DNA of 64,000 nt from Candidatus Saganbacteria bacterium. Its GTDB lineage: Bacteria > Margulisbacteria > WOR-1 > XYC2-FULL-46-14 > XYC2-FULL-37-10. The notes beneath the pieces were generated by a model. That model ran no database searches and was not told the origin of the DNA. It saw only the letters and a program-made list of their open reading frames with translations. Positions 1 to 28,258 of this stretch are shown here, one piece after another. The stretch covers positions 21,417 through 85,416 of the forward strand of contig JACRPL010000006.1 in NCBI GenBank assembly GCA_016223245.1. The letters are read 5' to 3'. Each line of letters opens with the position of its first letter. The stretch's first letter is position 1. A program made the position numbers and the translations under genes.

Positions 1-1382
1 TCCATGGCTTTATATCCATCATCGATCCTATCCTGGTATTTAGAGTCGATATTGGCGATTATCCTATTTTCGACAGCCTCCATTTGCGATTCTTTAGATT
101 TATCTTTTGCTTTATCCAGCGCTTTATTGTCGATTATCCGTGTATTGGACGGGTCTTGCACGTCGTCCTGTATGTCGGCTATTTTTGACGCGCCCCATTT
201 TGAAAGAGCTGCCGCGGCAGAAATTGCCGCAACCGTCAATACTGCGCCAATGCCTGTCCACGAAAAAATTGCTCCGACAATAGCAACTACAAGCGCCGCG
301 ACCTGCAAGAAGCTCCCCATAAAATGGAGGAATTGGTAGCCCGCAGAATTCAATTTGTCGATCTGCTTTTGCATATATCTAGACTGGTTTGTAAGTTTTG
401 CAATGGCGATCAAATTTGTCGATTGGGTATTGAATACCGACATTGTGCGTCCCGCTTCTTTTTCGAACAATTGCTGGTATGCTTTTGCTTTTGAATCCGA
501 GCCTTTGACCTCGTTTGAGGCTTCAAAGATCAGGTTTCCCGCATCAGCTTTGACTTCGCGGGAGGCTAAGATATGCCTTTGGACATTCAAAATATTGGTT
601 AATTTTTTCTTTAATTCGTCGATCGATTTTCTAAGCGATGGGACGTCGATATAGTCGCCGCTGCCGTCGTTTTGGTAAAGGCCCGTATTCAATCCGTTAA
701 AAGCATCCGTTGCCCGGGTGGAAAAATCGCCATTAAGCCCCGCAAGCCCTTTTTGGTTCACGGCCTTGTTCAATTGGGAATAGCTTTCCTGCATTGCCGC
801 GTTGAATTCATCGGTTATTTTTTTCTTTTCTTCCGCTCTCCAATCTTCATCGTCACAGAACGGCAAACTATCATGCCATTCCGAGGCTTCCTCGTCGATC
901 TCCGCATTACGATTATTTAATACTGCCTGGTTGTATGTTTGTATCTTGGACATAATGCTTGAGACGCCCTGGTTATACATCTCATCCCTTAAGCTGATGC
1001 TCTTTAATGCCGTTTCAATCTGCGAAGGCTTCTTTGATTTTTTAGCGTCGCTTATCTGCGCTTTTTGGAAATTAATTTCGAAAAGCATTTCGTTCAATTC
1101 TCTTCTTGTTTCATTGTAAACCGCGAGATTGAGCGATAAATAGTCTCTTGTGTTGTTTAAGTCGTAAAGCGCTCCAAGGTTTTTACCGTCGGCTACTTGG
1201 AAGCTTCCTTTTGAGTTTGTAAAATCGCCGCCTGCAGCATAGATAGCGGACTTTTTAGCGTCATAATATTCTTCAAAGTTTTGGATATAGCCAGAATCGT
1301 CCATGCGGCCGCTTTCACTGTTTTGGAAGTAGTCGTCAACTTTGACCGTATTTTGATTGGATATAGGCGCGCTTGTATTCAT
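1..1382 (-). CDS. Hypothetical protein, C-terminally truncated by the window edge (more than 460 aa visible). A long helical soluble region is followed by a ~36-aa hydrophobic helical hairpin.
   Basis: Reverse-strand translation by hand from ATG at 1380-1382 gives MNTSAPISNQNTVKVDDYFQ... and no stop codon down to position 1. The hairpin reads FLQVAALVVAIVGAIFSWTGIGAVLTVAAISAAAAL. The gene is missing from the ORF track only because it lacks an in-window stop. The plus-strand ORFs listed for 4..1514 are antisense artefacts of it. Confidence 0.5.
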   Translation of the reverse strand, partial: MNTSAPISNQNTVKVDDYFQNSESGRMDDSGYIQNFEEYYDAKKSAIYAAGGDFTNSKGSFQVADGKNLGALYDLNNTRDYLSLNLAVYNETRRELNEMLFEINFQKAQISDAKKSKKPSQIETALKSISLRDEMYNQGVSSIMSKIQTYNQAVLNNRNAEIDEEASEWHDSLPFCDDEDWRAEEKKKITDEFNAAMQESYSQLNKAVNQKGLAGLNGDFSTRATDAFNGLNTGLYQNDGSGDYIDVPSLRKSIDELKKKLTNILNVQRHILASREVKADAGNLIFEASNEVKGSDSKAKAYQQLFEKEAGRTMSVFNTQSTNLIAIAKLTNQSRYMQKQIDKLNSAGYQFLHFMGSFLQVAALVVAIVGAIFSWTGIGAVLTVAAISAAAALSKWGASKIADIQDDVQDPSNTRIIDNKALDKAKDKSKESQMEAVENRIIANIDSKYQDRIDDGYKAM

Positions 1383-1456: not shown

Positions 1457-2485
1457 TTATTTTGTCGGAACAGCTATTTCCGGCAGCTTGGAATCCTTTA
1501 CATTTTTAAGATAAAATGCGTTAATAACCGCTTCATTGATATAGTATTTTTCTTTGGCTTTTGGCCTCAAGAAGTTCCAAAATGAAGAATTAAGATCTTT
1601 TTTGTCGAAACCGCCTTCTTTAATGAAAGCCGAAAAAATGCCTCTTAAAAATCTATCTTTTATTCTGGCATTATTCAGATCGACACCATCAAACTCGATA
1701 TTGTTTCTCAAGCAATACGATTCGTATGCGGCATGATAGATATAAAACAACAATGTCTTTATATGTTTTGGCGGGTCTTCTTTGGTCTTTTGCCATTCTT
1801 CGTATCTTGAAACTTGCTCTTCTCTTGAAGCTGCCGACGTATAATATGCGCGCCATGCCAAATCAAGATATTTATTATATGTTTCCTTGTCGTTTCGTCC
1901 AAGCCCTGTTACGTCAATATTATCCTCGGAACCATGTAATTTATAATATACGATCTCATCTTTCCTCATGATCTGGAGGAACCCTTCTCTGGTCAACTGG
2001 TACCGTGCATATAATACTTGCTGGTAGAAATCTATTCGGTTTTTCAGGTCTATGTAGCTTATAGAAGCTTTCCCATCGCCAAAAAGCTTTAGGAAATTGT
2101 CTTCCTTGAAATTATCGTCAGATAATCCTGTGTCTTCAAGGATCAATGCCTTCAATTGTTTTAGATCGATATTCCCGTCTTTATCTATTAGCTTGTCCAC
2201 CTTGTCAGCGAATTTCTTTGAAAGCCTAAGAGATGATTCTGATTGTTCGCACATGCGGTTGAATTTTGCCCTTAAAAACCCGCCGGGCGTCCTTTTTTCA
2301 TTGTCGTCCGGTATGGCGACTTTAGCTGCGGCTGAAGTTCCGGCTCCTGGCGCAATATCTCCGCGAATAATTGCGGCATCTACAGGCAATGCTCCGGATG
2401 GGACATCAGATTCCCTCCTTGGAGCTTTTCCGATTCGTTCAGGCGGCCTGCGTGTTATTGGCGCCGCTGGCGCGATTTCTGCCAT
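1457..2485 (-). CDS. Hypothetical protein, 342 aa, with a GC-rich Ala/Pro/Gly-rich N-terminus (MAEIAP...VPSGAL...) paralogous to the small upstream protein.
   Basis: Complete ORF. Its ATG (2485-2483) overlaps the TAA of the upstream 67-aa gene as TAATG, which suggests translational coupling. The N-terminal ~50 codons are conspicuously GC-rich within an AT-rich genome. No recognisable catalytic motif was found. Confidence 0.55.
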   Translation of the reverse strand: MAEIAPAAPITRRPPERIGKAPRRESDVPSGALPVDAAIIRGDIAPGAGTSAAAKVAIPDDNEKRTPGGFLRAKFNRMCEQSESSLRLSKKFADKVDKLIDKDGNIDLKQLKALILEDTGLSDDNFKEDNFLKLFGDGKASISYIDLKNRIDFYQQVLYARYQLTREGFLQIMRKDEIVYYKLHGSEDNIDVTGLGRNDKETYNKYLDLAWRAYYTSAASREEQVSRYEEWQKTKEDPPKHIKTLLFYIYHAAYESYCLRNNIEFDGVDLNNARIKDRFLRGIFSAFIKEGGFDKKDLNSSFWNFLRPKAKEKYYINEAVINAFYLKNVKDSKLPEIAVPTK

Positions 2486-2688
2486 TATTTAACCCCCAGG
2501 TAATTTTCAATATTAGAAGATTCAATCCTGAATTGTGCGAGTTTTTTTTGGAAACTTTCACGGATATCCTTCAATTCAGCTTTTGCTTTTTTGCGGTTAA
2601 TATACGCGGAAAACAATTGATAAGCATTTATCAATGTTAACATAGCTATAAATCCAAGTGAAAATGAAATCCAGTTAATATCAAACAT
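2485..2688 (-). CDS. Small membrane protein, 67 aa, with one N-terminal TM helix and a charged helical tail.
   Basis: An AGGAG-type RBS (reverse complement of 2689-2700, aagaggagaatt) lies directly upstream of the ATG at 2688. The hydrophobic stretch is ISFSLGFIAMLTLINAYQLF. The gene sits between two paralogous genes in the same orientation. Confidence 0.5.
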   Translation of the reverse strand: MFDINWISFSLGFIAMLTLINAYQLFSAYINRKKAKAELKDIRESFQKKLAQFRIESSNIENYLGVK

Positions 2689-2698
2689 AATTCTCCTC

Positions 2699-2935
2699 TT
2701 AGATTACCGTATTTGTTTTCGGCGCAATTGCACCGGGTGTTTGTACAGGCATTGTCGGTACTTCAGCTATATTTTTTTTTGGCAATAATGCTCCTGCTAC
2801 ACCGTTTAGGCTAACTTCCAGCAAACCTCTTGCGCCTGTTAATGCGAGCCTGCCGGATGGGACCCCGCGTGATTTAGCCGAAGCCGCGTCACTAAAACCT
2901 CTCCCCATTCCTCCGTTCGGATCGATCTCTGCCAT
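2699..2935 (-). CDS. Small Ala/Gly/Pro-rich protein, 78 aa, beginning MAEIDPNGG...VPSGRL..., paralogous to the N-terminus of the 342-aa protein.
   Basis: The start is an internal ATG at 2933-2935 of the listed 138-aa ORF, chosen because a GGAGG sequence lies 10 nt upstream (reverse complement of 2946-2950). The first 60 codons of the listed ORF overlap PBP1A and were discarded. There is a 10-nt gap to the next gene. Confidence 0.5.
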   Translation of the reverse strand: MAEIDPNGGMGRGFSDAASAKSRGVPSGRLALTGARGLLEVSLNGVAGALLPKKNIAEVPTMPVQTPGAIAPKTNTVI

Positions 2936-3011
2936 GATAATTTCGCCTCCACAATGTATATCGCATCCAATCGCAATAAACTTGCATGCAATCATGATAT
3001 AATTATACACA

Positions 3012-5084
3012 ATGAACCAGAAGAAAACGCCTAAAAAAAGACCTCGATCCTTGCTTATTGTCATTTTAATTATTGCAGCCGCGATCGTTGGCATATTTGT
3101 CCAAACAATGCTCACGCTTCCAAAAGTCGAAACGCTTGATTATTATATCCCATCGGAATCGACGACTTTATTTTCGTCAGACAGCAATCCGATGGCCCGC
3201 TTCCACAAAGAGGAAAACAGGCGCGTTGTGCAAATGTCTAGTATAAGCCCGTATATTAAGAAAGCCGTGATCTCAATCGAGGATGAGAGGTTTTATTCCC
3301 ATAACGGGGTCGATTTTCAAGGGATACTAAGGGCGGCGGGAAAAAATTTATTATGCGGCAGGATCGTTGAAGGCGGATCAACAATTACCCAGCAGCTTGC
3401 CCGCAACTTGTTCTTGACCCGGCAAAAAAGCATTGTCAGAAAATTCGCAGAGATCATTATTGCCCTGCAGATCGAGCATCGATTCACAAAACAAGAAATA
3501 CTCGAATATTATTTGAACCAGATTTATTTCGGGCATAACGCTTACGGCATCGAATCGGCATCTGACCTTTATTTTGACAAGCATGCAAAAGACCTGACGC
3601 TTGCCGAAGCTTCAATGCTTGCAGGCATTATTGAAGGGCCGGAGCTTTTTTCCCCTTATAAGAATATGAAGCTTGCAAAAGGGAGGCAAAAACTGGTACT
3701 GGCCAAAATGGTCGACCTGGGGCTTACATCTTTAACCGAAGCCCAAAACGCCTTCCAGGAGATACTTCCTATTTATCCTGAAAATTTAAGGAAATTCGGC
3801 AACATGGCGCCGTATTTTGTAGATTACATCCTCCAATTGTTGACCGAAAAATATGGGGAGGAAATGGTCAATAAAGGCGGTTTAAGGGTTTACACGACGC
3901 TTGACCCTAACATGCAGATTGCGGCTGAAGAGGCTGTTAAGCGTTTTGCAGAGGGCGAAGGGCCAAAATACAATTTCTCGCAGGCATCATTGATAGCGAT
4001 CGATCCCCGCTCCGGCCATATAAAAGCGATGGTCGGCGGGGTGGATTTTGTTAAAAGCCAATTTAATCGTGCTGTCCAGGCTAAGCGCCAGCCAGGCTCT
4101 TCATTTAAGCCGTTCATCTATGCTGCGGCGATCGAAAAAGGGATATCTCCCGGCACAGTGATCGAAGATAAGCCGATAAGTTTTAAAGTTTACCGGAACA
4201 AGTGGAACCCTCGCGGAAGCTGGTCGCCAAAAAACTTCGACAAAAAGTTCCACGGGAACGTTACCCTGCAGACCGCTCTTGAAAAGTCGCTAAACATTCC
4301 AGCCATTCAGTTGCTCCAGGATATCGGTGTTTCGGCCGCGATCTCAATTGCGCAAAGGATGGGAATAACAAGCAGGCTTGAGCCTGCCTTATCCCTTGCT
4401 TTGGGCGCATCGGAAGTTACGTTATACGAAATGACATCTGCTTTCGGTGTTTTTGCGAACAACGGCGTCAGATTTGAGCCTGTTGCCATTACAAAGATCG
4501 TCGACCGTAATGGAAACGTGATATTTCAGCACGAGGCTCGAGGGAAAAGAGTGCTTTCTGATAATGTCGCGGCAGTAATGGATGAGATGATGGAAGGCGT
4601 TATCTTGCGCGGTACGGGCGTTGCAGGGAATATCGGAAGGCCTGCGGCGGCAAAAACAGGGACTTCGCAGGATTTCCGCGATGCATGGTTTGTAGGTTTT
4701 ACTCCCCACCTTGTTTGCGGTGTTTGGGTCGGAAACGACAACAATGCCCATATGAAAGGAGTTGCCGAAGTTGCAGTCTGCCCAAGGCTTTGGAGGGAGT
4801 TTATGTCTAAAGCCATGGGAGTATATCCTGCGGTCGATTTCCAGAAACCTCAAGGGCTTGTGGCCGTAAAAATCTGTTTAAGCTCGGGCCTGCTTCCTAA
4901 TTCATCCTGTCCCAAGGATAAGATCGTTTCTGCCAAGTATTTTGAAAAGGATATTCCGATAGCCGAATGTTATATCCACCCGACGGAGAAAGACGCGGTC
5001 GAAGAGAAAGAAGACGAGCCGGAAGGAAGTTCAGATGAGCAATTAAAAGAAACGGAAGGAATACCTACTGATGGCATCAATTAA
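3012..5084 (+). CDS. mrcA: Class A penicillin-binding protein (PBP1A; transglycosylase plus transpeptidase).
   Basis: N-terminal TM anchor. Glycosyltransferase motifs ISIEDERFYSHNGVD and RIVEGGSTITQQLARN. Transpeptidase motifs SSFKPF and KTGT. 690 aa. Confidence 0.9.
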   Translation: MNQKKTPKKRPRSLLIVILIIAAAIVGIFVQTMLTLPKVETLDYYIPSESTTLFSSDSNPMARFHKEENRRVVQMSSISPYIKKAVISIEDERFYSHNGVDFQGILRAAGKNLLCGRIVEGGSTITQQLARNLFLTRQKSIVRKFAEIIIALQIEHRFTKQEILEYYLNQIYFGHNAYGIESASDLYFDKHAKDLTLAEASMLAGIIEGPELFSPYKNMKLAKGRQKLVLAKMVDLGLTSLTEAQNAFQEILPIYPENLRKFGNMAPYFVDYILQLLTEKYGEEMVNKGGLRVYTTLDPNMQIAAEEAVKRFAEGEGPKYNFSQASLIAIDPRSGHIKAMVGGVDFVKSQFNRAVQAKRQPGSSFKPFIYAAAIEKGISPGTVIEDKPISFKVYRNKWNPRGSWSPKNFDKKFHGNVTLQTALEKSLNIPAIQLLQDIGVSAAISIAQRMGITSRLEPALSLALGASEVTLYEMTSAFGVFANNGVRFEPVAITKIVDRNGNVIFQHEARGKRVLSDNVAAVMDEMMEGVILRGTGVAGNIGRPAAAKTGTSQDFRDAWFVGFTPHLVCGVWVGNDNNAHMKGVAEVAVCPRLWREFMSKAMGVYPAVDFQKPQGLVAVKICLSSGLLPNSSCPKDKIVSAKYFEKDIPIAECYIHPTEKDAVEEKEDEPEGSSDEQLKETEGIPTDGIN

Positions 5085-8739: not shown

Positions 8740-9419
8740 GGCTGGTTGTAAACTCCTAATTGCTGGTCGCGGATGACCCTTCCGTTGTCTAGCGCTACGA
8801 CCCTCCGCTTCATGCTGTCGACGATGTTTTTGTTATGGGTCGAGACAAGGACTGTTGTATCGCGCCTGTTGATCTTGTCTAATAGCTCCATGATCTCCCA
8901 AGAAGTCGTAGGGTCAAGATTTCCTGTCGGTTCGTCAGCCAAAAGCAGCGTCGGATTGTTGACTATTGCGCGGGCTATGCAGACCCTTTGTTTCTCTCCG
9001 CCGGAGAGGTGTTCGGGGAACGACGAAGACCTTTTGAACATTTGGACAAGTTCGAGCGCCTGCATTGTGCGGCGCCTTATCTGCGACCTTGGCACGGAAG
9101 TTACCTGCAGTGCAAATGCCACATTCTCGTAAACGGTCCTTCTCTGGAGCAATTTAAAATCCTGGAAAACAACCCCGATATTCCTTCGCAAATAAGGCAC
9201 CTGTTCCGGGGTCAAGTCCGAAACATTGATCCTGTCGACGATAACTTTTCCCGAAGTCGGCCATTCTTCGCGGTAAAGCATTTTCATGAGAGTTGTTTTG
9301 CCTGCCCCTGACGACCCCACAATAAAAACGAATTCTTCCTTGCCGATGTGGAGATTGACGTCGAATAGCGCTTCAACGCCGTTTGGATATATTTTTGATA
9401 CGTTCTTAAGTTCGATCAT
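8736..9419 (-). CDS. ftsE: Cell division ATP-binding protein FtsE.
   Basis: Walker [13 protein letters not shown] signature LSGGEKQR, Walker B LLLADEP. 227 aa. Confidence 0.92.
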
Positions 9420-10666
9420 CTATATAATGGGAACTCCAGGCATAGTTTCTTGACTTCTTCGCGGATCTCTTTTTTCTTGGTTTCGTTTTCTTTATTTTCG
9501 ATAGCGCGATCTATGAATTCGGCTATCTTTTTCATTTGAGGCTCTTTCATACCGCGAGTAGTTATGGCAGGCGTCCCAACCCTGATACCGGATGTTACAA
9601 ACGGTTTTTCGGGATCAAAAGGTATTGTATTTTTGTTTATAGTAATGCCCACTTCGTCCAAGACCTTTTCGGCTTCTTTTCCGGTAACCTTCTTTACCCT
9701 AAGGTCTACAAGCATTAGATGGTTATCGGTACCGCCTGACACAAGCCGGAAGCCGTTTGCCGTAAGCTCTGTTGCCAAAACTTTAGCATTTTTAACGATC
9801 TGTTCCTGGTATTTTTTAAATTCAGGAGTTGAAGCTTCTTTGAAGGCGACAGCTTTTGCCGCAATAATATGCATTAGAGGTCCGCCTTGGTTGCCGGGGA
9901 ATACAGCTTTGTCTATCTTTTGGGCGTAATCGGCTTTGCACATGATCATGCCGCCCCTTGGGCCCCGCAAAGTCTTATGGGTTGTCGTGGTTACAATTTC
10001 TGCAACAGGAACAGGCGATGGATGAAGACCCGCAACAACGAGTCCCGCAATGTGAGCTATATCAACCATCAATAATGCGCCGACTTCTTTTGCGATTTCA
10101 CTGAACTTTTTAAAATCGATTATTCTGGGATAAGCTGTTGCGCCTGTAACGATCATTTTGGGCTTATGTTCGTGCGCTAATTTTCTTAATTCATCGTAAT
10201 CGATGGTTTCTGTTTCTTTATTTACGCCATAGGGAACGAATTTAAAATATGTGCCGGAGATATTAACAGAGCTTCCATGAGTTAAATGGCCGCCGTGAGA
10301 AAGATTTAATCCTAATACAGTATCTCCATAGTTTAAGCAGGCAAAGTATGCTTCCATGTTGGCTTGGGATCCCGAATGAGGCTGGACATTGGCATGATCC
10401 GCCCCAAAAAGTTTTTTCGCTCTCTCTCTCGCCAAGTCTTCCGCAATATCGACATATTGGCATCCGCCGTAATATCGTTTGCCGGGATATCCTTCGGCAT
10501 ACTTGTTTGTCATGACAGACCCTGCGGCTTCCATAACTGCGCGGGAAGTGAAATTTTCGGATGCTATCAATTCGAGATGGGTTTGCTGGCGGTCAAATTC
10601 TAAATCAAAAGCTTTTGCAATCTCCGGGTCGAATTTGCGGATATTTTCCAGGTCGAAATGTTGCAT
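9416..10666 (-). CDS. glyA: Serine hydroxymethyltransferase.
   Basis: PLP-lysine region [14 protein letters not shown] and strong SHMT-wide similarity. The start was moved to the internal Met ([15 protein letters not shown]) to avoid overlap with the upstream small gene. Confidence 0.95.
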
Positions 10667-11298: not shown

Positions 11299-12399
11299 CT
11301 ATAAGGTTATAATGAAATACTGCAGCATTTTTTCCATATCGGCAGTTACAAGGCTTTCTTGCGCCTCATTATGGAACGTGGTATAGACAACTGTGCCTTT
11401 AGAAGCGCCTGCTGGCTTGAATTGAACTGCAAGCGGCTTGTCTGACACCGTTCCTGATGCAGAAATTCCGGATGCAATTCTTACTGACTCACTTAAAACG
11501 TTGGCAGAAGAACCGGAAATTGTCGGACTTCCACGAAGAAGCACGGCAGTATCCGTCCCTTCTCCTGAAATAACAACCCAGCCGCCTAAATCATAATAAA
11601 TGCTTATCGTAGATTTGCCTAAAACATTATTTATTAAGTTCGAATCAATAACAGTAGCTTCAACTGTTTTTGATCCCGTGCCGACTTTGGCCGCAGAAAT
11701 AGATTCAGCGGTCGCCGTAGCAGTAGAATCGCTGCCATAAAAGTCGATCGCACTTGGCCATAAGGGTTCTACGAAAGCAGCTGCCCAGTCAGAAGCATAA
11801 AGGGATTTTCCTGCGACCTCCACGAAGTTTTTTAAGTTAGTTTCAGCAGTCGAAGTAAAATTGGAAGTGGAAGCCCCGCAATTAATGAAAATTGCCTCAA
11901 AAGTGCTTATGAAGGCATAATTTGCCAAATCCGAAACTTCTATGGTTGTATAAGTAAAACCTAATTTTGTAATTATATTTTCAATTGTATCATAAGATCC
12001 TTTTATTACGGCAATATCTTTTGGAGCAGTTAAATTGGCTGGAGTAAAAGTGGTTTCAGAAGTAGCAACATTTACCGTTGTGCCGGATTCGAGAGTGACG
12101 GTGAAATCGATTTTCCAAGATCCTGATTCGACCGTCACTATTTTTGTGACAGAGGCTGAAGTTACAGGGACATTTAATGTGTAAGAGCCATCAGATTTTG
12201 TAAAAGTTTCAATAATAGATCCTGTTGTCCAAACTTTGACCCCTCCAAGAGGAGTAGTCCCGTTCGCAGCATAAACGATCCCTTTTACAACGCAGGTTGC
12301 TGTTGTTTCATTAACCTTGGCACATCCCACCGTTAACACAGAAATCCCAAATCCAAAAACCAAGATCCAAATCAAAATCCCAAATCTAAATCTTTTCAT
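11299..12399 (-). CDS. Ser/Thr-rich surface lipoprotein with an N-terminal carboxypeptidase-regulatory-like domain.
   Basis: The start was moved to MKRFRFGILIWILVFGFGISVLTVGC (lipobox LTVGC), which has an AAGGAG RBS 7 nt upstream. CVVKGIVYAANGTTPLGGVKVWTTG...SDGSYTL is CarbPepD_reg-like. Confidence 0.6.
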   Translation of the reverse strand: MKRFRFGILIWILVFGFGISVLTVGCAKVNETTATCVVKGIVYAANGTTPLGGVKVWTTGSIIETFTKSDGSYTLNVPVTSASVTKIVTVESGSWKIDFTVTLESGTTVNVATSETTFTPANLTAPKDIAVIKGSYDTIENIITKLGFTYTTIEVSDLANYAFISTFEAIFINCGASTSNFTSTAETNLKNFVEVAGKSLYASDWAAAFVEPLWPSAIDFYGSDSTATATAESISAAKVGTGSKTVEATVIDSNLINNVLGKSTISIYYDLGGWVVISGEGTDTAVLLRGSPTISGSSANVLSESVRIASGISASGTVSDKPLAVQFKPAGASKGTVVYTTFHNEAQESLVTADMEKMLQYFIITL

Positions 12400-12409
12400 G
12401 TTCTTCTCC

Positions 12410-13057
12410 TTATAAATAATATCTGTAGCCAGCGTCAACCCGAAGCCCTAACCCAGTATTATAGCCTAATCCAACTTGAACAGGCCCCATCTTTGTACCG
12501 CCTACGATGCCAAATCCTATTCCGCTCTTGATAACTCCAGAAAGCCCGGGGACGTTTGTCACATCTTTTGAATAACCAGCGTAAGCAAGCTCAAGTCCGA
12601 CATTGAAATTGCCTATTGGGTAAAGTACTTTTGCGCCGGCATCAATTATGCCGAAACCGCTGCCCATAGCATAACCGATTTCGCCGCCAAGAAAAACAGG
12701 TCCCATCGGCATTAGATAATCTGCCGCAAAAAGCGCCGCTCCTCCTGCTAATCCACCCTTTAGGGTTAAAGATCTTGCGGATTTTTCAACTATTTGCACT
12801 TTTGTGATCTCAAGCTTTAATTGCGAATCGGCAGGAAGTTCCTTCTTTAACTCTTCGATCTTGGCTTGATGCCCCTTAATTGTTTTATTCATGCGTGCGA
12901 TCTGCGTCTTGTTTTTTGTATTCGATAATTTTGATTGGAGCGCGGTGATCTCGCTTTGGAGCTTATCTATCTTTTCTTGAGCAGTCGCGGCGAAAGCCTG
13001 TACAGATAAGAAGCAAATGAACCCGGATAAAACGATCAAAGTAATTGTTTTTTTCAT
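12410..13057 (-). CDS. Outer-membrane protein: signal peptide, coiled-coil and a Gly-rich small beta-barrel-like C-terminus.
   Basis: Signal peptide MKKTITLIVLSGFICFLSVQAFA. Heptad coiled coil at residues 25-90. Gly/aromatic alternating C-terminal half ending ...RVDAGYRYYL. Forms an operon with the downstream lipoprotein. Confidence 0.55.
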   Translation of the reverse strand: MKKTITLIVLSGFICFLSVQAFAATAQEKIDKLQSEITALQSKLSNTKNKTQIARMNKTIKGHQAKIEELKKELPADSQLKLEITKVQIVEKSARSLTLKGGLAGGAALFAADYLMPMGPVFLGGEIGYAMGSGFGIIDAGAKVLYPIGNFNVGLELAYAGYSKDVTNVPGLSGVIKSGIGFGIVGGTKMGPVQVGLGYNTGLGLRVDAGYRYYL

Positions 13058-13138
13058 TAGATAACCACCTCTATTCGTTACAGCTTATAGATATTTTTTT
13101 TACTTGTCAAGCCGGAGTTTCAAAGTTATAATGCCTCC

Positions 13139-13450
13139 ATGCCAAAAAAAGAAAAAAACGAAAATGATATCGAAAATGAGATGGAAGAAGTATTTTCTGA
13201 AGCCTCCGAATCGTGCCAAGCCTGCGGCGGCGTGCTAAAGGCCGAAAAAGTCAACCTTGAGGAGTTTGAAAATGGCAAGCTTTATTTAATGGAAAACGTT
13301 TCCGCATACATTTGCGAAGGATGCGGAGAGATGTGGGTGCCGGAACCGACCCTTATTGAGTTTGAAAAGATGATGGATACGGCAAAAGAATATCAAGACG
13401 GAAAGGCTCCTCTCAAAAAAGCTACCCACAGGGTCAAGCGGCGCAAATAA
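13139..13450 (+). CDS. YgiT-type (MqsA-like) zinc-ribbon protein, standalone.
   Basis: CQACGG...(28 aa)...ICEGCGEMW matches the YgiT finger CxxC...CxxCGE. Acidic N-terminus and basic C-terminus. No HTH domain. Confidence 0.6.
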   Translation: MPKKEKNENDIENEMEEVFSEASESCQACGGVLKAEKVNLEEFENGKLYLMENVSAYICEGCGEMWVPEPTLIEFEKMMDTAKEYQDGKAPLKKATHRVKRRK

Positions 13451-13460
13451 TCGTTAGCTA

Positions 13461-15281
13461 TTAATTAACAGTAAATGGCACTACATCCGTAATGATCTTG
13501 CCGGCTGTTGATTTTTCAGATGAAGCTGTTGCGCTTGTGATCAATTGTTCAACCACGTATGATGTATTGTTGGTCATGTCGTATACGTCAAAATACAGCA
13601 AACTCGACAACGGGTTAAAGTTAAAGCTGTAGATTATTACGCTTGATTTGCTCGATGTCATATCTACCGGGCTAGTTGAAACGCTTGTAAGGTCGTTGCG
13701 AAGTATCTTGCTTTCTCCGCCGTTGTTCGCTAGATAGATCAAATAATCCCCGTAAGCGCGGGCCTTATTGATCGTCCTGTATTTTGAGTGCCTGGAAAAT
13801 GCTTCGATGCTCGGCTCTCCGCTTGAGTTCACTATCCTGTAAATCCTGTCGCCCTTGACGGCCGATGTCCCCGAAGACCAGCTGTCCAATTTTAATATGG
13901 CGTATAATGATCCATTGTCAGCGAGGACCAATTGTTTTGCCCAGCCGAAATTGACCCCCTGAAGGCCGTTGGCTATTTTCCATTCGTTTTTTGTTGTGCC
14001 TGCCAAGTGCGCATTTACTTCAACGCTTATTTTATCGGCAATATTTGAAACCCAAGCGCCATGGACGGATTCGCCGGTACCGGTAATGTTCATCGCTTCA
14101 AATGTTAAACCGCCTAAGGTATCGGTGGTCGTTGAAAAATATTTTTCCCTGATGAAATTGCGTACAGTTTCTTCCGAAACTCCGCTTTCAAGGGACAGAG
14201 GAAGGGATGTGCCTCCCCAGCTATCCTGTTTGAAAAATCTTTTTTGCTCGGTCCCATCCCAGTAGCCATAAAGTATTTGGTTTGATATTGTCCTTGAATC
14301 GTCCCATGCGTTCGAATCATCATATAACGACTTGACCGACGTGATCTTCCCCGTCGTATCAAGCTTGACTTGTATGATGCCGGAATATTTCAAGAAATTG
14401 TCATTTTGGTCTTTTATCTGTAGATTTGTGCCGACCAATATAATGCTGTTATTGCTTGGCACATAATAGTATGACCTAAGCCATCCGGTGTAGCCGTCGT
14501 TATAGAAAATACTTTTGACCGAATTGTTGTAGATCAGGCGCAGCCATTCGATGCTCCAATTCCCGGCATCGGACCCGTGAAAAAGAACGAACCCGTTCGG
14601 GCAAACATAAAAATCCCTGACAGCCATCTGGCTGTTCCCGATCTGCGAAAGTACTCCTGCCGGCGTCTTTTTCTTGAGGACTGTTGTCCCGCCGCCCGAA
14701 CCCTGCGCGGTGCCGAGATAATAAAGGTTCCCGTCATTATCCCATTGTACTTGTTTTACAGGAAGATCACCATTGTTTGAATCCCCGTACCATGTGCCAA
14801 CGCCATTAAGGGTATCATCGACTGATTCAGTCGTGCCGGTTGGATATATCCTAAAGAAAGCTATTTGCCTTCCGCGGGATTCTGATGTTGAAGAGTCTTG
14901 GATCCAAACGCCCCATTGGAAACCGACGTAAAGCGAACCATCCGGGCTTTTTTCAATTACGGAAATTGGAGGGCGGGAACCAGACGGCAGATTCAATATT
15001 GATGAAAACTCTCCCGAAGCGGTTAATTTCAAAAGGTCAGTTACGTTGGCGACCAGCGCTTTAACGTCTTTTGCCAGGGCTAAACCGCTCGTTCCAGTTG
15101 ATGCGGCAGAAACAATCGCTTTAGCTCCTGAAACATCAAAAAGATTTGATACTTTAACGGAAGAAGATTGATCCCCTCCGCCGTATGAACCTTTTTGTTC
15201 GCCACAGCCAGCCACTAGCGTGGCAATGACCAATGACCAAATCCCAATGACCAACAAAGAATAGTAATAATTTTTTTTCAT
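13461..15281 (-). CDS. Large lipoprotein, 606 aa, Ser/Gly/Tyr/Trp-rich and probably beta-rich.
   Basis: MKKNYYYSLLVIGIWSLVIATLVAGCG with lipobox LVAGC. A GGAGG RBS lies upstream. The 5' end shares the AATGACC-repeat cassette with the lptD-like gene. Confidence 0.6.
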   Translation of the reverse strand: MKKNYYYSLLVIGIWSLVIATLVAGCGEQKGSYGGGDQSSSVKVSNLFDVSGAKAIVSAASTGTSGLALAKDVKALVANVTDLLKLTASGEFSSILNLPSGSRPPISVIEKSPDGSLYVGFQWGVWIQDSSTSESRGRQIAFFRIYPTGTTESVDDTLNGVGTWYGDSNNGDLPVKQVQWDNDGNLYYLGTAQGSGGGTTVLKKKTPAGVLSQIGNSQMAVRDFYVCPNGFVLFHGSDAGNWSIEWLRLIYNNSVKSIFYNDGYTGWLRSYYYVPSNNSIILVGTNLQIKDQNDNFLKYSGIIQVKLDTTGKITSVKSLYDDSNAWDDSRTISNQILYGYWDGTEQKRFFKQDSWGGTSLPLSLESGVSEETVRNFIREKYFSTTTDTLGGLTFEAMNITGTGESVHGAWVSNIADKISVEVNAHLAGTTKNEWKIANGLQGVNFGWAKQLVLADNGSLYAILKLDSWSSGTSAVKGDRIYRIVNSSGEPSIEAFSRHSKYRTINKARAYGDYLIYLANNGGESKILRNDLTSVSTSPVDMTSSKSSVIIYSFNFNPLSSLLYFDVYDMTNNTSYVVEQLITSATASSEKSTAGKIITDVVPFTVN

Positions 15282-16061: not shown

Positions 16062-17201
16062 ATGGCAGAATTCAGGCGCGCATACGGATTTGACGAGATA
16101 TCGCTTGCCCCGTCAATTATAACGATCAACCCGGATGATACGGATGTTTCGGTTGAGATCGGCAAAAAGAAGTTCCAGATCCCGATCATCGCTTCCGCGA
16201 TGGACGGAGTTATGAGCCCCAAAACTGCCGTCCTAATGAGCAAGCTTGGAGGATTGGGCGTTCTTAATCTCCAAGGCGTTTGGACGCGCTACGAAAACGC
16301 CGAAAAAGTATTGGAACAAATAGCTTCCGTCAGCCGCGAGGAATATGTCCCGCTAATGCAAAAACTTTATCTTGAACCGGTCAAAAAAGACCTTATCGGA
16401 AAAAGAATTAAGGAGATAAAAGCCGCCGGCGGGATCGCTGCGGTATCATCTATCCCGCAAGATGCCATCGAATTTGGTACTATCGCACGCGATGCAGGCG
16501 TTGATATTTTTGTCGTCCAATCGACCGTCCTTTCGACAAAACACAAATCAAAGACATCCGAGCCTTTGGACCTAAAAAAATTCTGCCATGAGATGAAAGT
16601 GCCGGTGATCGTCGGAAATTGTGTTACATACGAAGTAGCATTAACGCTTATGGGTACAGGTGTTGCGGCAGTTTTAGTCGGGATCGGGCCCGGCGCCGCC
16701 TGCACCTCGCGCGGGGTTTTAGGCGTCGGAGTGCCGATGGCCACGGCTATTGCCGATTGCGCCGCGGCGCGCGACGCTTACTATAAAGAGAACAATATTT
16801 ATATTCCAATCATCGCAGATGGCGGTATGGCAGTGTCGGGCGATATGTGCAAGGCTATAGCTTGCGGTGCGGATGCCGTTATGATCGGGTCACCGATCGC
16901 AAAAGCTTCCGAAGCTCCTGGCTGCGGATTCCATTGGGGCATGGCGACGCCGTCGCCTACACTTCCTCGAGGATCAAGGATAAAAGTCGGAACGATCGGT
17001 TCATTAAAAGAGATATTGCACGGCCCTGCAAAATTCGATGACGGATCGATGAATTTTATTGGAGCCCTTCGGACATCTATGGGAACATTGGGCGCAGTAA
17101 ACATCCGCGAGATGCAGCAAGTTGAGGTTGTGATCGCTCCTTCGATCTTAACCGAAGGAAAAGTTTACCAAAAAGCTCAGTCTCTTGGCATGTACAAATG
17201 A
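16062..17201 (+). CDS. IMP dehydrogenase family protein lacking the CBS subdomain.
   Basis: TIM-barrel IMPDH/GMPR motifs include the catalytic Cys loop VGIGPGAACTSR. At 379 aa there is no room for the CBS pair. AAGGAG RBS. Overlaps guaA by 4 nt. Confidence 0.8.
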   Translation: MAEFRRAYGFDEISLAPSIITINPDDTDVSVEIGKKKFQIPIIASAMDGVMSPKTAVLMSKLGGLGVLNLQGVWTRYENAEKVLEQIASVSREEYVPLMQKLYLEPVKKDLIGKRIKEIKAAGGIAAVSSIPQDAIEFGTIARDAGVDIFVVQSTVLSTKHKSKTSEPLDLKKFCHEMKVPVIVGNCVTYEVALTLMGTGVAAVLVGIGPGAACTSRGVLGVGVPMATAIADCAAARDAYYKENNIYIPIIADGGMAVSGDMCKAIACGADAVMIGSPIAKASEAPGCGFHWGMATPSPTLPRGSRIKVGTIGSLKEILHGPAKFDDGSMNFIGALRTSMGTLGAVNIREMQQVEVVIAPSILTEGKVYQKAQSLGMYK

Positions 17202-18787: not shown

Positions 18788-21700
18788 ATGGCAGAAGTAT
18801 CACTAGACCCAATAACACATCAAAAGTCACCAAAGCCTGTTGTTTCGGGGCCAACGCCTGCATCGTCACAACCAGGAAGGGTAAAACAACCTCCTGCTCC
18901 AACGACAGCTCCGGCCCATGAATCCGCAAAAACATTAAAAGCTCGTCAAGCTCAACTCGACATTGAATCTGTTTCTGCTGATGAACAGGCTTTTATCACT
19001 TTGCTTGGGATAACAAAAGTGGAATTTCGGGAAATAAAAGCGATATGCAATCTTAAACAAACGGATAGGTTAACTTTTCTGCTTTCGAAAGTTAAGGGGG
19101 CAAAAAGCGGGTCTGCGGCTGTAAAAAAAGCCAAACAAAATATCAAAAAATACGAACAATGTCAAAAATATAAAGAAGCGATCCTTTCCACATTAAAGGT
19201 CCAACAGCCGGAACTATTCAAAACCTTTGAAAGCTATCAAAATAAGATTTTGGCCCGAGCATTTGCGGAAACCTTAGCCCTTTTTAGGGATGAACGAGTA
19301 TTTAAGGAATATTATGAAATATTGAACAAATATCACATAATAGATCCCTTGGCAATTGGCAGAAAAGATATAGGTAAAATGACGATTTACGAAGAGACAA
19401 TCTTTTTTCAGAGAACAGAAACAATGAGAGGATATTCGATCTCAAATATGTATTTTGAAGAAGCCCAGAGATATTTGAACATTCAAGAACAGATCCGGGC
19501 CAAAACAAATAAATATTTCTTGCAAATAATAAAGTCAAATAAATTTGGGAAAAAATTGGCCGCTATCCATAATAGAGAAACAGAAGCTATGGCGCAATTA
19601 TGGCCAAAAGATGATCTTAACCTTGAATTGACTGGACTGACAAATAAAGCCCAAAGCCTAATAAATAAATACCGTAAAATAGCTAAAGAGCTTGAAGCCG
19701 CGATCAAAACGCCGGATATTAAAGACGATGAAATGGCCAAAGCGAAATTGTCGGGGATCATCGATGAATTGCTGGCGGAAATTGGAATTGAATATAAGGC
19801 TGCTTATGTTGAAACCCCCTCAAATCCAGAAAAACAGGCTTTAAAATCATTGCTCCATATCACCGCACAATTGAAGATATTGGATAAAAAGATAATATAT
19901 TATGCCAGATTAAGCAATCCCGCCCTATCGCAGAATGAAAGGGATCTGATCGAACAGGTTAAAGGTCTATCCGAGAAAGGGATATTATTTTCGAAAGCGC
20001 CTACTGAAGCCGGAGCTTTCAAAAAATATACTTTGGCTGCATGGCTTGCGACCTATCCAAAAGAAGTACAACTTATTCTGGAAATATATGTCCGATCAAC
20101 GAAAGATTTCTTAAGGCAGATTAAAGATAATATGCCTTTGATAGGTACGGGAAAGGATAAAAGTGAGGCATTGTATTTTACCTTGCTGGCTTCGGGATTT
20201 TCCGAAAAAGAATTATTGGCGTTCGATGCCATGGCGGCGCTTGAAAGCCTCGCTGATGACGACAAGAAGGTTTTAATAGGAACAAATGAAGGGCAAATAG
20301 GAAATTGTTTAAAAGAGCTTAAGAAAACATATGATCTAATGTTATCCAGCAAGTATATAACATTAAGTCCTAAAGAAAGAGCCGCTATAAATGCTAAATA
20401 TTGTCAATTAACAAGCCTTTTATTTGGGCTTGTCGGCTCTTATCAGCGAGCAAGTTATCTGATGGAAATATCTGTTTATATGCGCAAAACCGGTGTTCAT
20501 ATTCCCGGAAAAACCCATGAGATTGAAAATTCTCCAGAAACACACGATGACCTTATTTATCACCAAGGCTTGTTGAGATTCATTAAGGCTTCTGCCGAAC
20601 AATTTGGCGTTGACCCATGGAATCTTATTGCCACTCATTTAACCGTCAGGAAAATTACCGGCGAGCCGATCGACCAAAAATATGTGGATGAGATATTGAA
20701 ACATTCATCTTTGCAAGGTTTGATCGATTTAGACGGCCAATATAATTTAGACGAGCTTAAAAAGAAATTCATTTCAGCTTTTGTTTATAAAGGGCTGGAA
20801 TCATCTTTAGCCATCCAAACTAATTATGAGGCATCGAAAGCTAAAATATTCGCATGGCTGCAAAAATATGTAGGACAAATAAGATCGGAAATATCAAAGG
20901 ATCCTCGATATGCCGGGCTCAATGAAATGGAAAATAAGCTTAGGATACTGAACCAAATATTCAGGTTTTTGTTGGAAACAAAGGTAGTGTCAAACAACGA
21001 ATTGGATATTTTTATCAAGAAAAATCCTTATGCTGAGCTAAAGATCGGGTTGGAAATGCAAAACTTGAGATCGAAGGAGGTATTCTTTACTATGGGGTAT
21101 GAGAGTCTGCCAAAAGAGGTAAAGGATGCGGTTGAAAAACACGGATTTACCGCTTTTTGCAAGGATTATGCAGCTCTCTTGGATATCTATTGGGTCCCTA
21201 ATGACAAGAAAACTTTATTTTTAGGATACACTTTTTTGGGGAAAGGCCCAATTGTCTTAACATATAAACAATCTAATTTTTTGAACAAAATAATTGACAT
21301 ATTAGTCCACGAATTAAGGCATAAAGCGGATAACGATGACTTTGAAAAATATTGCCTGGCAAACCCTAACTATAAAAAACCTTTTGATGATATCCCTATT
21401 ATGCTGACAGAACGAAATGCTGATATCCTTTCATTGGCTGTTTGTGAAGGCATCAAGCCAAGAACCTTGGCCTTAAAAAAGGAAATAGCAGAAATAAGGC
21501 GAAGAGTTGAAATATCCAATGTTTTGTTGGGGCTAAACCCGGGAGACAGGCAAATTTTAAAGCCGCCTTATAATGGGATAAAGATAGAAATGCAATCATT
21601 GTCGATCGCGCCATCGCAGATACCTTTAGAAGTGAAAGATCTTCATGCAATAAAATCAGTTTTAATTAATATGGGTTATACCGCCAAAGAACAGGGATTT

Positions 21701-21961
21701 TTGATAGATACTTGTGTTGCAGTCATTTCATCCGGTTGGATCGATCTTTCAACCCTAAATGTTCCCGGCCAAAGGAATATATTCATTGATTTTATTGAAA
21801 AATTGGTTGGGGATAAGCGAAGCAAAGGATATTATACAGATGAATTTGAGAGTCACTTAGCTCACTCGAAAAAAACAATAAATAGTAAAGTAAAAACCCC
21901 CATTGTTACATCTCAAGAGCTTAAACGGTTGATCTATAAGACGCTGCCTCTCGCCTTCTGA
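18788..21961 (+). CDS. Large hypothetical protein, 1057 aa, with a Pro/Ala-rich N-terminus, extensive Lys/Glu-rich helical regions and a single HExxH motif. Putative zincin-like domain.
   Basis: A continuous ORF. No signal peptide. HELRH lies within ...IIDILVHELRHKADNDDFEKY at about residue 850. No other recognisable domain. Confidence 0.6.
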   Translation: MAEVSLDPITHQKSPKPVVSGPTPASSQPGRVKQPPAPTTAPAHESAKTLKARQAQLDIESVSADEQAFITLLGITKVEFREIKAICNLKQTDRLTFLLSKVKGAKSGSAAVKKAKQNIKKYEQCQKYKEAILSTLKVQQPELFKTFESYQNKILARAFAETLALFRDERVFKEYYEILNKYHIIDPLAIGRKDIGKMTIYEETIFFQRTETMRGYSISNMYFEEAQRYLNIQEQIRAKTNKYFLQIIKSNKFGKKLAAIHNRETEAMAQLWPKDDLNLELTGLTNKAQSLINKYRKIAKELEAAIKTPDIKDDEMAKAKLSGIIDELLAEIGIEYKAAYVETPSNPEKQALKSLLHITAQLKILDKKIIYYARLSNPALSQNERDLIEQVKGLSEKGILFSKAPTEAGAFKKYTLAAWLATYPKEVQLILEIYVRSTKDFLRQIKDNMPLIGTGKDKSEALYFTLLASGFSEKELLAFDAMAALESLADDDKKVLIGTNEGQIGNCLKELKKTYDLMLSSKYITLSPKERAAINAKYCQLTSLLFGLVGSYQRASYLMEISVYMRKTGVHIPGKTHEIENSPETHDDLIYHQGLLRFIKASAEQFGVDPWNLIATHLTVRKITGEPIDQKYVDEILKHSSLQGLIDLDGQYNLDELKKKFISAFVYKGLESSLAIQTNYEASKAKIFAWLQKYVGQIRSEISKDPRYAGLNEMENKLRILNQIFRFLLETKVVSNNELDIFIKKNPYAELKIGLEMQNLRSKEVFFTMGYESLPKEVKDAVEKHGFTAFCKDYAALLDIYWVPNDKKTLFLGYTFLGKGPIVLTYKQSNFLNKIIDILVHELRHKADNDDFEKYCLANPNYKKPFDDIPIMLTERNADILSLAVCEGIKPRTLALKKEIAEIRRRVEISNVLLGLNPGDRQILKPPYNGIKIEMQSLSIAPSQIPLEVKDLHAIKSVLINMGYTAKEQGFLIDTCVAVISSGWIDLSTLNVPGQRNIFIDFIEKLVGDKRSKGYYTDEFESHLAHSKKTINSKVKTPIVTSQELKRLIYKTLPLAF

Positions 21962-26698: not shown

Positions 26699-28258
26699 CT
26701 AGTTTATGCCGAAGTTGAAATTAAATTCATTCCTCATTACACGATATGCAAAAGTTATATTGAAGCAATGGATCCCGATGCGGACAAGATAATCGAATTC
26801 TCGGGGACTTAAATCCGGTAAATTATATAAAACGTTGATACCGTATTTGCTTCCATCATTTCCTGCCATAAATCCCGCATTTATTTGGTTTGAAGCTGTA
26901 AAGCGATACATTTCATAAGTAAACGGGCTTGTTCCTCTATTTAGGATGAAAGTCCTAAATCCCACACCGGTTGATAAGAATGGGGACCATGTCTTGTACA
27001 ATTCAAGGCCGCCAACGGTTTTTAGCCAACGGGTCCCGTTGCCGCCTTGCCTGCCGGCAGGCAGGTAGAAAGAATGGTCGTTATCCAAAATAACCTTTAT
27101 TATGCCGATTTGAAGGTCGAGAAGCGATGCCGAAACGCCAAGTTTTGCGTTTGAATAAGTTTGTGATGCCCCAGATGATTCTTCGGAAATAAACCCGAGA
27201 GAGAGAGATCCTGACATATCAAATTTATCATATGCCCATTTTTTAAGCGACAAAGATAAAAGCGGGAACTGGCTTACCCTTTCATAATTTATCCTTTCAT
27301 TTAATGCCATTTTGGACGAAAGCTCGAATTGTTTAACAGTATCAATGTTAAATAATTTTAGGGCGAACGGCCCATCGCTCTTTACTTCATTGCCAAAAAG
27401 ATAATTATGGGCAAATATGACAGAGATCGGGTCTTTCGAATCCCCGGATATTTTGAAATTTCCGCTGTTTTGGGCGTCTTTAATATAATTAAGGTCTAAT
27501 CCGGCCCCAAGATATTTCTTCGCAGCATAGTTTACCGCGATATTTCCGCTCAAGCTCCTGCTTACATGCCAAGGCAAGCTTTGGGAAATATAAGCTCCAT
27601 CAAGATCGTTTGATCCAAAAACCGGATAAGGCATTTGGTGGGCCAAACCTTTTTCTTCGGCTTTAAGGTCGTATATATAGACTGGTACCGGTGTCGTAGC
27701 TACGCCGTCCAGCCAAAACCTGGCCCAATAACAAATAAGCCATCCGTCCTTGGGATATAAAATAATATTATCGGCCTGAAAATGATAATGCGGTGTAAAT
27801 AGATCGCAAGTCGTGAATTCCGCATTTTTTAGGTCAATTTTGTCCTCGTCCATCTTAACTAGGTCTCCAGTCAGCGTAACATTTTTGTAGAGCAATTTTA
27901 CTTTATTTGCAGCACCGATCCTTGTGTTTAGATTGAAATCTAATACATCTCCCGAAAAATAAAGGCCTTGATATAGAAGTTTGAAGCCCGCATCCGTTTT
28001 AATATTCTTGTCCGCCGTAAAATATAAGAATTTTTCGCCAGATGCCTTGAGGTCTTTATATGTTACCTCGACTGATCCTATCGCTTCGACATATTTCCCG
28101 TCATCGGAATAATTGAGCGTTTGGGCGTTGATCGAGAGATCCTTGTCTTGGGCAAAGACTTGCGTTGATAATATAATAAGCAAAATGACCAATGACCAAT
28201 GACCAATGACCAACAAGGAATAGATTATAGAATAAATACATTGTTGGGATTTGGTCAT
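26699..28258 (-). CDS. LptD/OstA-like outer-membrane LPS-assembly protein.
   Basis: Signal peptide, then an OstA-like N-terminal domain (...LNYSDDGKYVEAIGSVEVTYKDLKASGEKFLYF...) and a beta-rich C-terminus. 519 aa is short for LptD. Confidence 0.55.
   Translation of the reverse strand: MTKSQQCIYSIIYSLLVIGHWSLVILLIILSTQVFAQDKDLSINAQTLNYSDDGKYVEAIGSVEVTYKDLKASGEKFLYFTADKNIKTDAGFKLLYQGLYFSGDVLDFNLNTRIGAANKVKLLYKNVTLTGDLVKMDEDKIDLKNAEFTTCDLFTPHYHFQADNIILYPKDGWLICYWARFWLDGVATTPVPVYIYDLKAEEKGLAHQMPYPVFGSNDLDGAYISQSLPWHVSRSLSGNIAVNYAAKKYLGAGLDLNYIKDAQNSGNFKISGDSKDPISVIFAHNYLFGNEVKSDGPFALKLFNIDTVKQFELSSKMALNERINYERVSQFPLLSLSLKKWAYDKFDMSGSLSLGFISEESSGASQTYSNAKLGVSASLLDLQIGIIKVILDNDHSFYLPAGRQGGNGTRWLKTVGGLELYKTWSPFLSTGVGFRTFILNRGTSPFTYEMYRFTASNQINAGFMAGNDGSKYGINVLYNLPDLSPREFDYLVRIGIHCFNITFAYRVMRNEFNFNFGIN
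27048..27063. repeat. Core palindrome TGCCTGCCGGCAGGCA, copy 3, in-frame within the lptD-like gene.
   Basis: A perfect 16-bp palindrome identical to the core of the element in mutS. It encodes LPAGR in ...FYLPAGRQGGNG.... Confidence 0.5.
28184..28211. repeat. AATGACC heptanucleotide tandem repeat, four copies, encoding the Trp-rich signal-peptide core of the lptD-like gene.
   Basis: Read directly from the sequence: aatgacc x4. On the minus strand it translates to LVIGHWSLVI. Its inverted copy TTGGTCATTGG lies at 28251-28261, spanning the start codon. Confidence 0.7.

Follow-up and report, generated by a model that had tools for sequence, protein, structure and literature searches.

A 64-kb window of a Candidatus Saganbacteria contig (64,000 nucleotides; all positions given below refer to this whole stretch unless a related locus is named) carries near its start three genes, A, M, and B, which form a real, tightly coupled operon and encode proteins of 78, 67, and 342 amino acids, respectively. 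Together with a fourth gene, D, they constitute a block that is conserved with small variations and was found only in Candidatus Margulisiibacteriota (including Saganbacteria). The short identities between the N-termini of A and B, which had first drawn attention to these genes, are, judged by pairwise and profile comparisons, no conserved shared module.

Based on the open reading frame (ORF) list, gene A was located at 2699–2935, gene M at 2485–2688, and gene B at 1457–2485, all on the reverse strand, as is gene D (1–1382), which is cut by the start of the window and codes for at least 460 amino acids. The longest ORF of A would begin with a GTG codon at 3115, but we preferred the ATG at 2935, since it is preceded by a GGAGG Shine-Dalgarno sequence 10 nt upstream (2946–2950, reverse strand, read from the sequence) and since the starts of the orthologs agree with it. 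The stop codon of A is followed by a gap of 10 nt up to M, in which a GAGGAG Shine-Dalgarno sequence of M is located (2693–2698, reverse strand), while the last nucleotide of M is also the first of B, in a TAATG stop/start overlap read from the sequence (2483–2487, reverse strand), which indicates translational coupling. Similarly tight junctions were found elsewhere: in seven other loci harboring both genes, the A/M junction lay between an overlap of 8 nt and a gap of 8 nt, and in six other loci in which M directly precedes B, both genes overlapped by 1 or 4 nt in five cases and abutted in one (such overlaps occur in L002, L006, L008, L010, and L015; locus numbers are explained below). Thus, the translationally coupled three-gene unit proposed in the initial annotation was borne out, including its strong Shine-Dalgarno sites and the TAATG overlap. 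Gene D begins 74 nt downstream of B. A search of the coding strand revealed no terminator-like site between A and D, and folding of the B–D spacer was no better than that of shuffled sequences. The ATG of D lacks a Shine-Dalgarno site and follows just after a TATATA box, and D may be transcribed from a promoter of its own or be leaderless. Upstream of A, a divergent intergenic region of 76 nt (2936–3011) separates the operon from a gene for a penicillin-binding protein (PBP1A); it is presumed to be the shared promoter region of both genes, and no strong sigma-70 consensus was detected in it.

A word-indexed search with B resulted in a single relative (P0002, 50% identity), and an exhaustive HMMER scan of 1.84 billion representative proteins listed 13 proteins, namely B itself, eleven true relatives, and P0006. 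The latter is a repeat protein that matched only the low-complexity arm of B and was rejected as a relative. Every member whose source was named belonged to Candidatus Margulisiibacteriota or Saganbacteria and was annotated as a hypothetical protein. Gene order is also conserved, with synteny of A, M, B, and D in no fewer than nine distinct loci of relatives; the loci compared are numbered L001 to L016. L001, the closest ortholog trio, displayed the order A'-M'-B'. In L002, L003, and L004, the block is preceded by a gene for a 59-amino-acid protein (59aa-A-M-B-D), in L008 and L009 by an acyltransferase gene (acyltransferase-A-M-B-D), and in L010 to L014 by both an acyltransferase gene and an ORF of 66 amino acids (acyltransferase-66aa-A-M-B-D), with a D protein of 1755 amino acids and seven or more further ORFs behind it. 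L015 revealed the same order and the same further ORFs with a D protein of 2055 amino acids. Apart from that, L006 and L007 showed M-B-D, L005 a divergent PBP1A gene followed by A-B-D, and L016 the order 60aa-B-A-M-D. M was the only protein of the cluster that tblastn still detected between distant loci (E 3.5e-7). No additional locus turned up in scans of GTDB genome contigs and JGI metagenome contigs, and literature searches yielded nothing on the A-M-B-D cluster.

In regard to the immediate neighbors, the PBP1A gene of the window (3012–5084, forward strand), a class A PBP with transglycosylase and transpeptidase, is oriented divergently from A at a distance of 76 nt, and the same arrangement with a gap of 84 nt is present in L005 (PBP1A at 1–1755 of this locus). 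This adjacency was seen only in these Saganbacteria-like loci and not in other classes. In most lineages, a conserved family of ORFs of 59–66 amino acids (...VNLDKVD.DI.SIL.DIK...) precedes the block (L002, 72–248; L003, 201–380; L010, 9227–9427; L015, 9170–9352; L016, 5196–5378); neither the window nor L005 has it, its place being taken by PBP1A. Downstream of D, at least seven syntenic ORFs were identified in the regions 11207–21146 of L010, 11286–21197 of L015, and 7331–13318 of L016, with sizes of about 71–75, 68–70, 90, 121–122, 105–108, 620–626, and 199 amino acids.

None of the proteins A, M, B, and D matched a family in Pfam, NCBIfam, PHROGs, or PADLOC, in agreement with the initial annotation, which had recognized no family for the trio. 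The block likewise matched none of the PADLOC models for anti-phage defence, and no toxin or immunity family was matched by its proteins. Profiles of B, D, and the 620-amino-acid family compared with PDB sequences gave a weak EF-hand loop for D and otherwise noise. For the ORFs downstream of D, the precomputed contig tables of all loci contained no Pfam match; in L010 these ORFs revealed no Pfam family above threshold and no meaningful PHROGs match, and its 178- and 620-amino-acid ORFs no meaningful NCBIfam match. Comparison of the 59-amino-acid, A, and D families with each other by hhalign also found nothing. Altogether, the A-M-B-D block is outside every curated family tested, and there is no known kind of system under which it could be filed.

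The initial annotation had pointed out that A and B both begin with MAEI.P, share VPSG.L also at the DNA level, and are GC-rich at their 5' ends on an AT-rich background, and all of this is present. A starts with MAEIDPNGG...RGVPSGRLAL and B with MAEIAPAAP...SDVPSGALPV, ATGGCAGARATCG is found at both starts, and the 11-mer GTCCCATCCGG, encoding V-P-S-G, occurs only twice in the 64-kb window, once in A (2853–2863, reverse strand) and once in B (2394–2404, reverse strand). The GC content amounts to 57.5% in the first 120 nt of A and 55% in the first 240 nt of B, compared to 41% in the window. This excess is located in codon positions 1 and 2 (0.60–0.66), with values at position 3 of 0.38 in the 5' part of B vs. 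0.41 in the rest of the gene, and both 5' parts encode 20–22% Gly or Ala plus Pro and Arg, so that the GC-rich ends go back to Ala/Gly/Pro/Arg-rich disordered sequence.

The proposal that these regions are paralogous N-terminal modules did not withstand comparison. BLASTP of A against B resulted in no alignment even at E<=100, and Smith-Waterman alignment of both N-termini reached a best score of 33, compared to 23.9 +/- 4.7 for shuffled sequences, of which 256 of 5000 (5.1%) also reached 33. Alignment of the A-family profile with the B-family profile by hhalign gave a probability of 0.1% and one aligned column. The identity consists of two islands, each with five identical residues within six positions, i.e., 10 residues in all, and the sequence between them is unrelated. 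The shared 11-nt word was equalled in 23 of 3000 codon shuffles (0.8%), which is uncommon but carries limited weight for a pair that had been picked by eye, and a start with MAE is not rare here, as the IMPDH-like gene at 16062 begins with MAEFRR. Moreover, neither MAEI.P nor VPSG is kept in the orthologs. B' of L001 starts with MDASVSLNAAKP (MDASVS...) without VPSG, and A' of the same locus carries NSYG where A of the window has VPSG. The nine aligned members of the A family share a different N-terminal motif, a hydrophobic residue followed by D-x-x-G(G) (EIDPNGG, SIDPNGG, VIDAHGG, EFDTGG, NLDTNG, NFDAG, and INFDQSG), the Asp and Gly of which (Asp5, Gly8/9) are absent from B. The N-termini of the B family vary, and in marine lineages this region is not a disordered Pro/Ala-rich arm. 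Loss of the similarity in comparison with orthologs, named by the initial annotation itself as speaking against a shared module, is therefore largely what we observed. In our view, MAEI.P and VPSG.L coincide by lineage-specific chance in low-complexity disordered segments, with local sequence exchange as the most that could lie behind them.

The analogy drawn to targeting or docking peptides, scaffold/cargo pairs, or polymorphic toxins could not be sustained either, as the analysis revealed neither a toxin nor a cargo or docking partner. Like polymorphic-toxin and cargo systems, the operon encodes a short and a long protein that have the same first four residues and a second tetrapeptide in common. 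Unlike in these systems, the common part of A and B forms no domain and is restricted to the 10 residues in two islands, these residues are not kept in orthologs, and the C-terminal part of B is conserved rather than a variable toxin. A polymorphic toxin/immunity pair was also considered and rejected, as B has a conserved C-terminal core and a variable N-terminus and did not match any toxin family.

Analysis of the single proteins revealed hydrophobic segments only in M and D, and no signal-peptide-like N-terminus was detected in A, B, or D. Protein A is a small soluble protein, Gly/Ala-rich and without any hydrophobic segment, and is probably disordered for the most part; in most family members its C-terminal tail reads G-x-[IL]-[AV]-P-[KRG] (PGAIAPKTNTVI in A of the window). 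Hydropathy and family alignment divide M into an N-terminus of 6 residues, a transmembrane helix at about residues 7–29, the sequence NRKKAKAELK, and a charged helix. M is predicted to be a single-pass membrane anchor with its N-terminus outside and its C-terminus inside, because the Lys/Arg-rich flank is located C-terminal to the transmembrane helix and, according to the well-established positive-inside rule, should stay in the cytoplasm.

For B, an AlphaFold2 model was built on 14 sequences. Residues 1–65 (2291–2485, reverse strand) constitute an Ala/Pro/Arg/Gly-rich arm, which includes MAEIAP and VPSGAL and is disordered according to the model and its composition, with a predicted local distance difference test (pLDDT) score below 50 at residues 1–6 and 11–62; this arm is poorly conserved across the family. 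Residues 66–342 (1457–2290, reverse strand) were modelled as a folded all-helical core of two lobes (pLDDT about 90–97 over residues 67–330), each with two short strands bridging helix-loop-helix units. The only invariant residues of the B family are M1 and Y250, which makes an enzymatic role unlikely, and no conserved set of catalytic-type residues was found in the family. Foldseek searches with the B model resulted in no significant match in the PDB (best E 0.8, probabilities <=0.25, template modelling score <=0.17 over the whole model) and none in BFVD (best E 0.49). Almost all of the weak top matches in the PDB were EF-hand proteins, namely calmodulin, sorcin, calcineurin B, ALG-2, and troponin C.

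Protein D displays helices of 40–48 residues and a hydrophobic helical hairpin at about residues 350–401 (180–335, reverse strand, based on hydropathy), whose helices span residues 349–372 and 378–401, which is flanked by Lys on both sides and is conserved in L006 and L010. An EF-hand-like loop (...YQNDGSGDYIDVPSLRKSI...) was located at 633–686 (reverse strand) by a weak profile match; the D-family profile compared with PDB sequences hit the EF-hand loop of calbindin/calmodulin with weak E values of 0.006–0.2. BLASTP related D to the D proteins of L006, L016, L015, and L010 (E 2e-62 to 5e-17), and D of the window is homologous to the N-terminal approximately 500 residues of the D proteins of 1549–2055 amino acids in other lineages, which possess 3–4 hydrophobic, glycine-zipper-like segments. 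Since the AlphaFold2 model of D was too poor for a fold search (pLDDT 39.5), only its secondary structure was used.

Taken together, we tentatively propose, with somewhat less than even confidence, that A, M, B, and D make up a membrane-associated complex on the cytoplasmic face that is possibly related to the cell envelope. The four coupled genes would deliver their products in fixed proportion for assembly at the cytoplasmic face of the inner membrane. M would serve as an anchor via its single transmembrane helix, leaving the charged helix in the cytoplasm, and D would be anchored by its hydrophobic hairpin, inserted in a re-entrant manner, with the long coiled-coil helices acting as a scaffold. 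B might be a non-enzymatic adaptor that combines a two-lobed EF-hand-like core with a flexible 65-residue Pro/Ala-rich arm, and A a small, probably disordered partner with conserved motifs at its ends. The neighboring genes hint at a function in the biogenesis of envelope or membrane, as they include the divergent PBP1A, a PlsC-type acyltransferase, and a putative outer-membrane beta-barrel, and this is the weakest step of the proposal. In other classes the block is accompanied by the PlsC-type acyltransferase and a signal-peptide-bearing protein without annotation, which we take from its sequence features to be the putative beta-barrel; an SLH-domain protein is also among the neighbors outside the window. 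In some respects, the block resembles scaffolds of the division and cell-wall machinery, such as EzrA or PBP partners of the GpsB/DivIVA type, which are also membrane-anchored coiled coils; here, membrane-tethered, non-enzymatic coiled-coil proteins are encoded beside a class A PBP and predicted to act at the cytoplasmic face. They differ in that no homology was detected and that the adjacency to PBP1A is limited to the window and L005.

A different role for the first residues of A and B is conceivable in view of a comparison within genomes. In residues 2–9, A and B of the same genome share four identities in the window and four in L015, but none to one in the other six genomes, while none of 115 pairs from different genomes reached four. 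The starts in L015 (A, MSFLNLDT, 9409–9444; B, MSAVNLNT, 10001–10036) are unlike the sequence of the window pair. An exact permutation test across the eight genomes showed a higher likeness of the A and B N-termini within a genome than between genomes (p=0.0017; p=0.013 without the window), with a signal carried by only two genomes, the window and L015. At the DNA level, 16 of the first 33 coding nucleotides are identical in the window and 18 of 33 in L015, compared to 6–12 of 33 elsewhere. This likeness could reflect chance, local exchange between the starts, or a fast-evolving shared signal. According to the last of these explanations, the first approximately eight residues would be a docking, targeting, or export signal common to A and B and co-varying within each genome, so that between genomes it would seem poorly kept, which would also account for the excess over pairs from different genomes, for the permutation result with and without the window, for the nucleotide identities, and for the 11-nt VPSG word being identical down to synonymous positions. 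We consider such a signal quite unlikely. It is apparent in two of eight independent genomes only, the conserved Asp5 and Gly8/9 of the A family are not found in B, and hhalign between both families detected nothing; VPSG is missing from both orthologs of L001, the Smith-Waterman score has a p value of about 0.05, and the genes nearby include none for a receptor, chaperone, or export machine. A further motif, G-x-[IL]-[AV]-P-[KRGH], was compared between the C-terminal tail of A and the disordered arm of B, which gave a Fisher p value of 0.006 across seven genomes but 0.51 for the window alone; the signal stems from L001 and L005, and we regard a motif common to both as unproven. Likeness between the C-terminal tails of A and B was examined as well and discarded, since it gave no signal (Fisher p=0.93).

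Other explanations concern the nature of B and D. B might be a true Ca2+-binding EF-hand sensor switching the complex on calcium, since calmodulin, the penta-EF-hand proteins sorcin and ALG-2, calcineurin B, and troponin C are the top structural neighbors of its model and, like them, it is all-helical with paired helix-loop-helix units, a short beta-bridge linking the loops of a pair. Loops of the form D-x-[DN]-G-x-[IV]-D recur in B and D, and some members of the B family possess near-canonical loops, e.g., DGNRDGLAPEEF in P0009. However, the canonical 12-residue EF-hand loop is acidic at positions 1, 3, 5, and 12, and B of the window deviates from this pattern: loop 1 (L99–Q110) has L at position 1 and Q at position 12 in spite of three D residues (positions 3, 5, and 9), and loop 2 (F135–D146) has F at position 1, K at position 5, and D146 instead of Glu at position 12, so that both loops lack the position-1 ligand (Leu99, Phe135) and the glutamate at position 12. 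In addition, Pfam EF-hand models matched none of the 14 B-family members even at E<=1, all Foldseek probabilities were as low as given above, and B, unlike EF-hand proteins, comprises 342 amino acids with a 65-residue disordered arm and is encoded together with membrane proteins. We therefore regard a calcium sensor as very unlikely. The translocators of type III secretion (SipB, IpaB, YopB) and toxins of the ClyA/Xax type combine long helices with a hydrophobic hairpin and no signal peptide, an architecture that D also has, and the block could accordingly be of an exported translocon or pore-forming type, with D as translocator or alpha-pore subunit, B as tip or partner protein, A as a small secreted or regulatory protein, and M as a membrane helper or immunity-like protein. 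As in type III translocators, long coiled-coil helices flank the hairpin of D (about 50 residues), a cleavable signal peptide is lacking, and the gene stands in an operon with smaller partner proteins; the several glycine-zipper-like segments in D of other lineages, the many small ORFs beside the block, and the polar, unstructured N-termini of A, B, and D would fit as well. On the other hand, B and D revealed no Pfam or NCBIfam match to SseC, IpaB, HlyE, HBL, or xenorhabdolysin (SseC, IpaB, and similar families were searched for with D of the window, L006, and L010), and D relatives are, unlike translocators, up to 2055 amino acids long with several hydrophobic segments. No type III machinery was found in any locus: Pfam families of the export apparatus and of class II chaperones were absent within 10 kb in L008, L010, L013, L015, and L016 and also among the 29 annotated window ORFs checked (3012–46196). 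No locus encodes a secretion ATPase, export gate, secretin, phage structural gene, or toxin domain within 10 kb. The locus is single-copy and surrounded by housekeeping genes in different classes of the phylum, and the flanks, which follow the positive-inside rule, would fit proteins inserted stably from the cytoplasmic side. We consider an exported system unlikely. Finally, the giant helical D proteins (1549–2055 amino acids) with internal glycine-rich hydrophobic segments recall tape-measure proteins, and with the run of small ORFs of no known family after the block, which might then encode assembly factors, one could think of a remnant of a mobile element or a phage tail-like module. This origin is highly improbable, as PHROGs gave no match for A, M, B, and D of the window and only sub-threshold matches (E>=0.004) to families of unknown function for proteins of L010, BFVD no structural match for B, and the surroundings no capsid, terminase, integrase, sheath, or tube gene, while the same chromosomal neighbors accompany the block in distantly related genomes and GC at codon position 3 is not atypical.

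Several observations weigh against our own proposal of a membrane-associated complex on the cytoplasmic face and should be kept in view. The same-genome likeness of the A and B starts is not predicted by pure coincidence. L005 lacks M and L016 revealed a changed gene order, so that the trio is not an invariant unit, and the neighborhood differs between classes, which leaves the link to the envelope as guilt by association. The low pLDDT makes the model of D unreliable, its architecture of coiled coil and hairpin without signal peptide would also fit secreted translocators, and the EF-hand likeness of B is below significance (Foldseek E 0.8; Pfam 0/14). Furthermore, we infer the assembly of four proteins from genes, topology, and models of single chains.

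Going beyond this proposal, the block, the preceding ORF of 59–66 amino acids, and the seven or more downstream ORFs might together encode an undescribed phylum-specific membrane machine for envelope biogenesis, membrane shaping, or protein translocation, built around a giant multi-hairpin coiled-coil protein and using the short, fast-evolving terminal peptides of A and B as assembly or docking signals; we regard this extended version as doubtful. Margulisbacteria are an uncultured phylum generally placed as sister to Cyanobacteria. If a dedicated membrane complex were confirmed, it would be a lineage-defining cell-biological feature of these bacteria, whose envelope biology is essentially unknown, and would add four protein families, including a confidently foldable helical domain of 280 residues that is currently unannotated anywhere. 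Conserved clusters of hypothetical proteins are common in candidate phyla, and A-M-B-D is one of many. In practice, the block is of use as a clearly bounded target for heterologous expression and for predicting complexes.

In the wider surroundings of the block, the window harbors, besides PBP1A, genes for a phosphoglucomutase, a PpiD/SurA-like chaperone, FtsX, and FtsE, while no tRNA genes and no Rfam families above the gathering threshold were found in its whole 64 kb. Several further ORFs did not belong to any Pfam family, namely three ORFs at 11299–15281 (reverse strand; 379, 215, and 606 amino acids) with signal-peptide- or lipoprotein-like N-termini, an ORF of 1057 amino acids at 18788–21961 (forward strand), which also lacked an NCBIfam family, and an ORF of 519 amino acids between dnaB and tmk (26699–28258, reverse strand). 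Among these, the 215-amino-acid ORF revealed a sub-threshold NCBIfam match to alpha-xenorhabdolysin subunit A (E 5e-4, 19.5 bits with a cut-off of 125), and the 519-amino-acid ORF a faint LptC-like match below the cut-off (E 0.004). At 36157–38607 (forward strand), a gene encodes a surface protein of 816 amino acids with Glucodextran_B, Big_13, and FlgD_ig domains and a C-terminal CHU_C signal (type IX secretion). In L008, L009, and L015, a homologous gene coding for 871–877 amino acids lies some 7 kb upstream of the block, showing that some long-range synteny has been kept.

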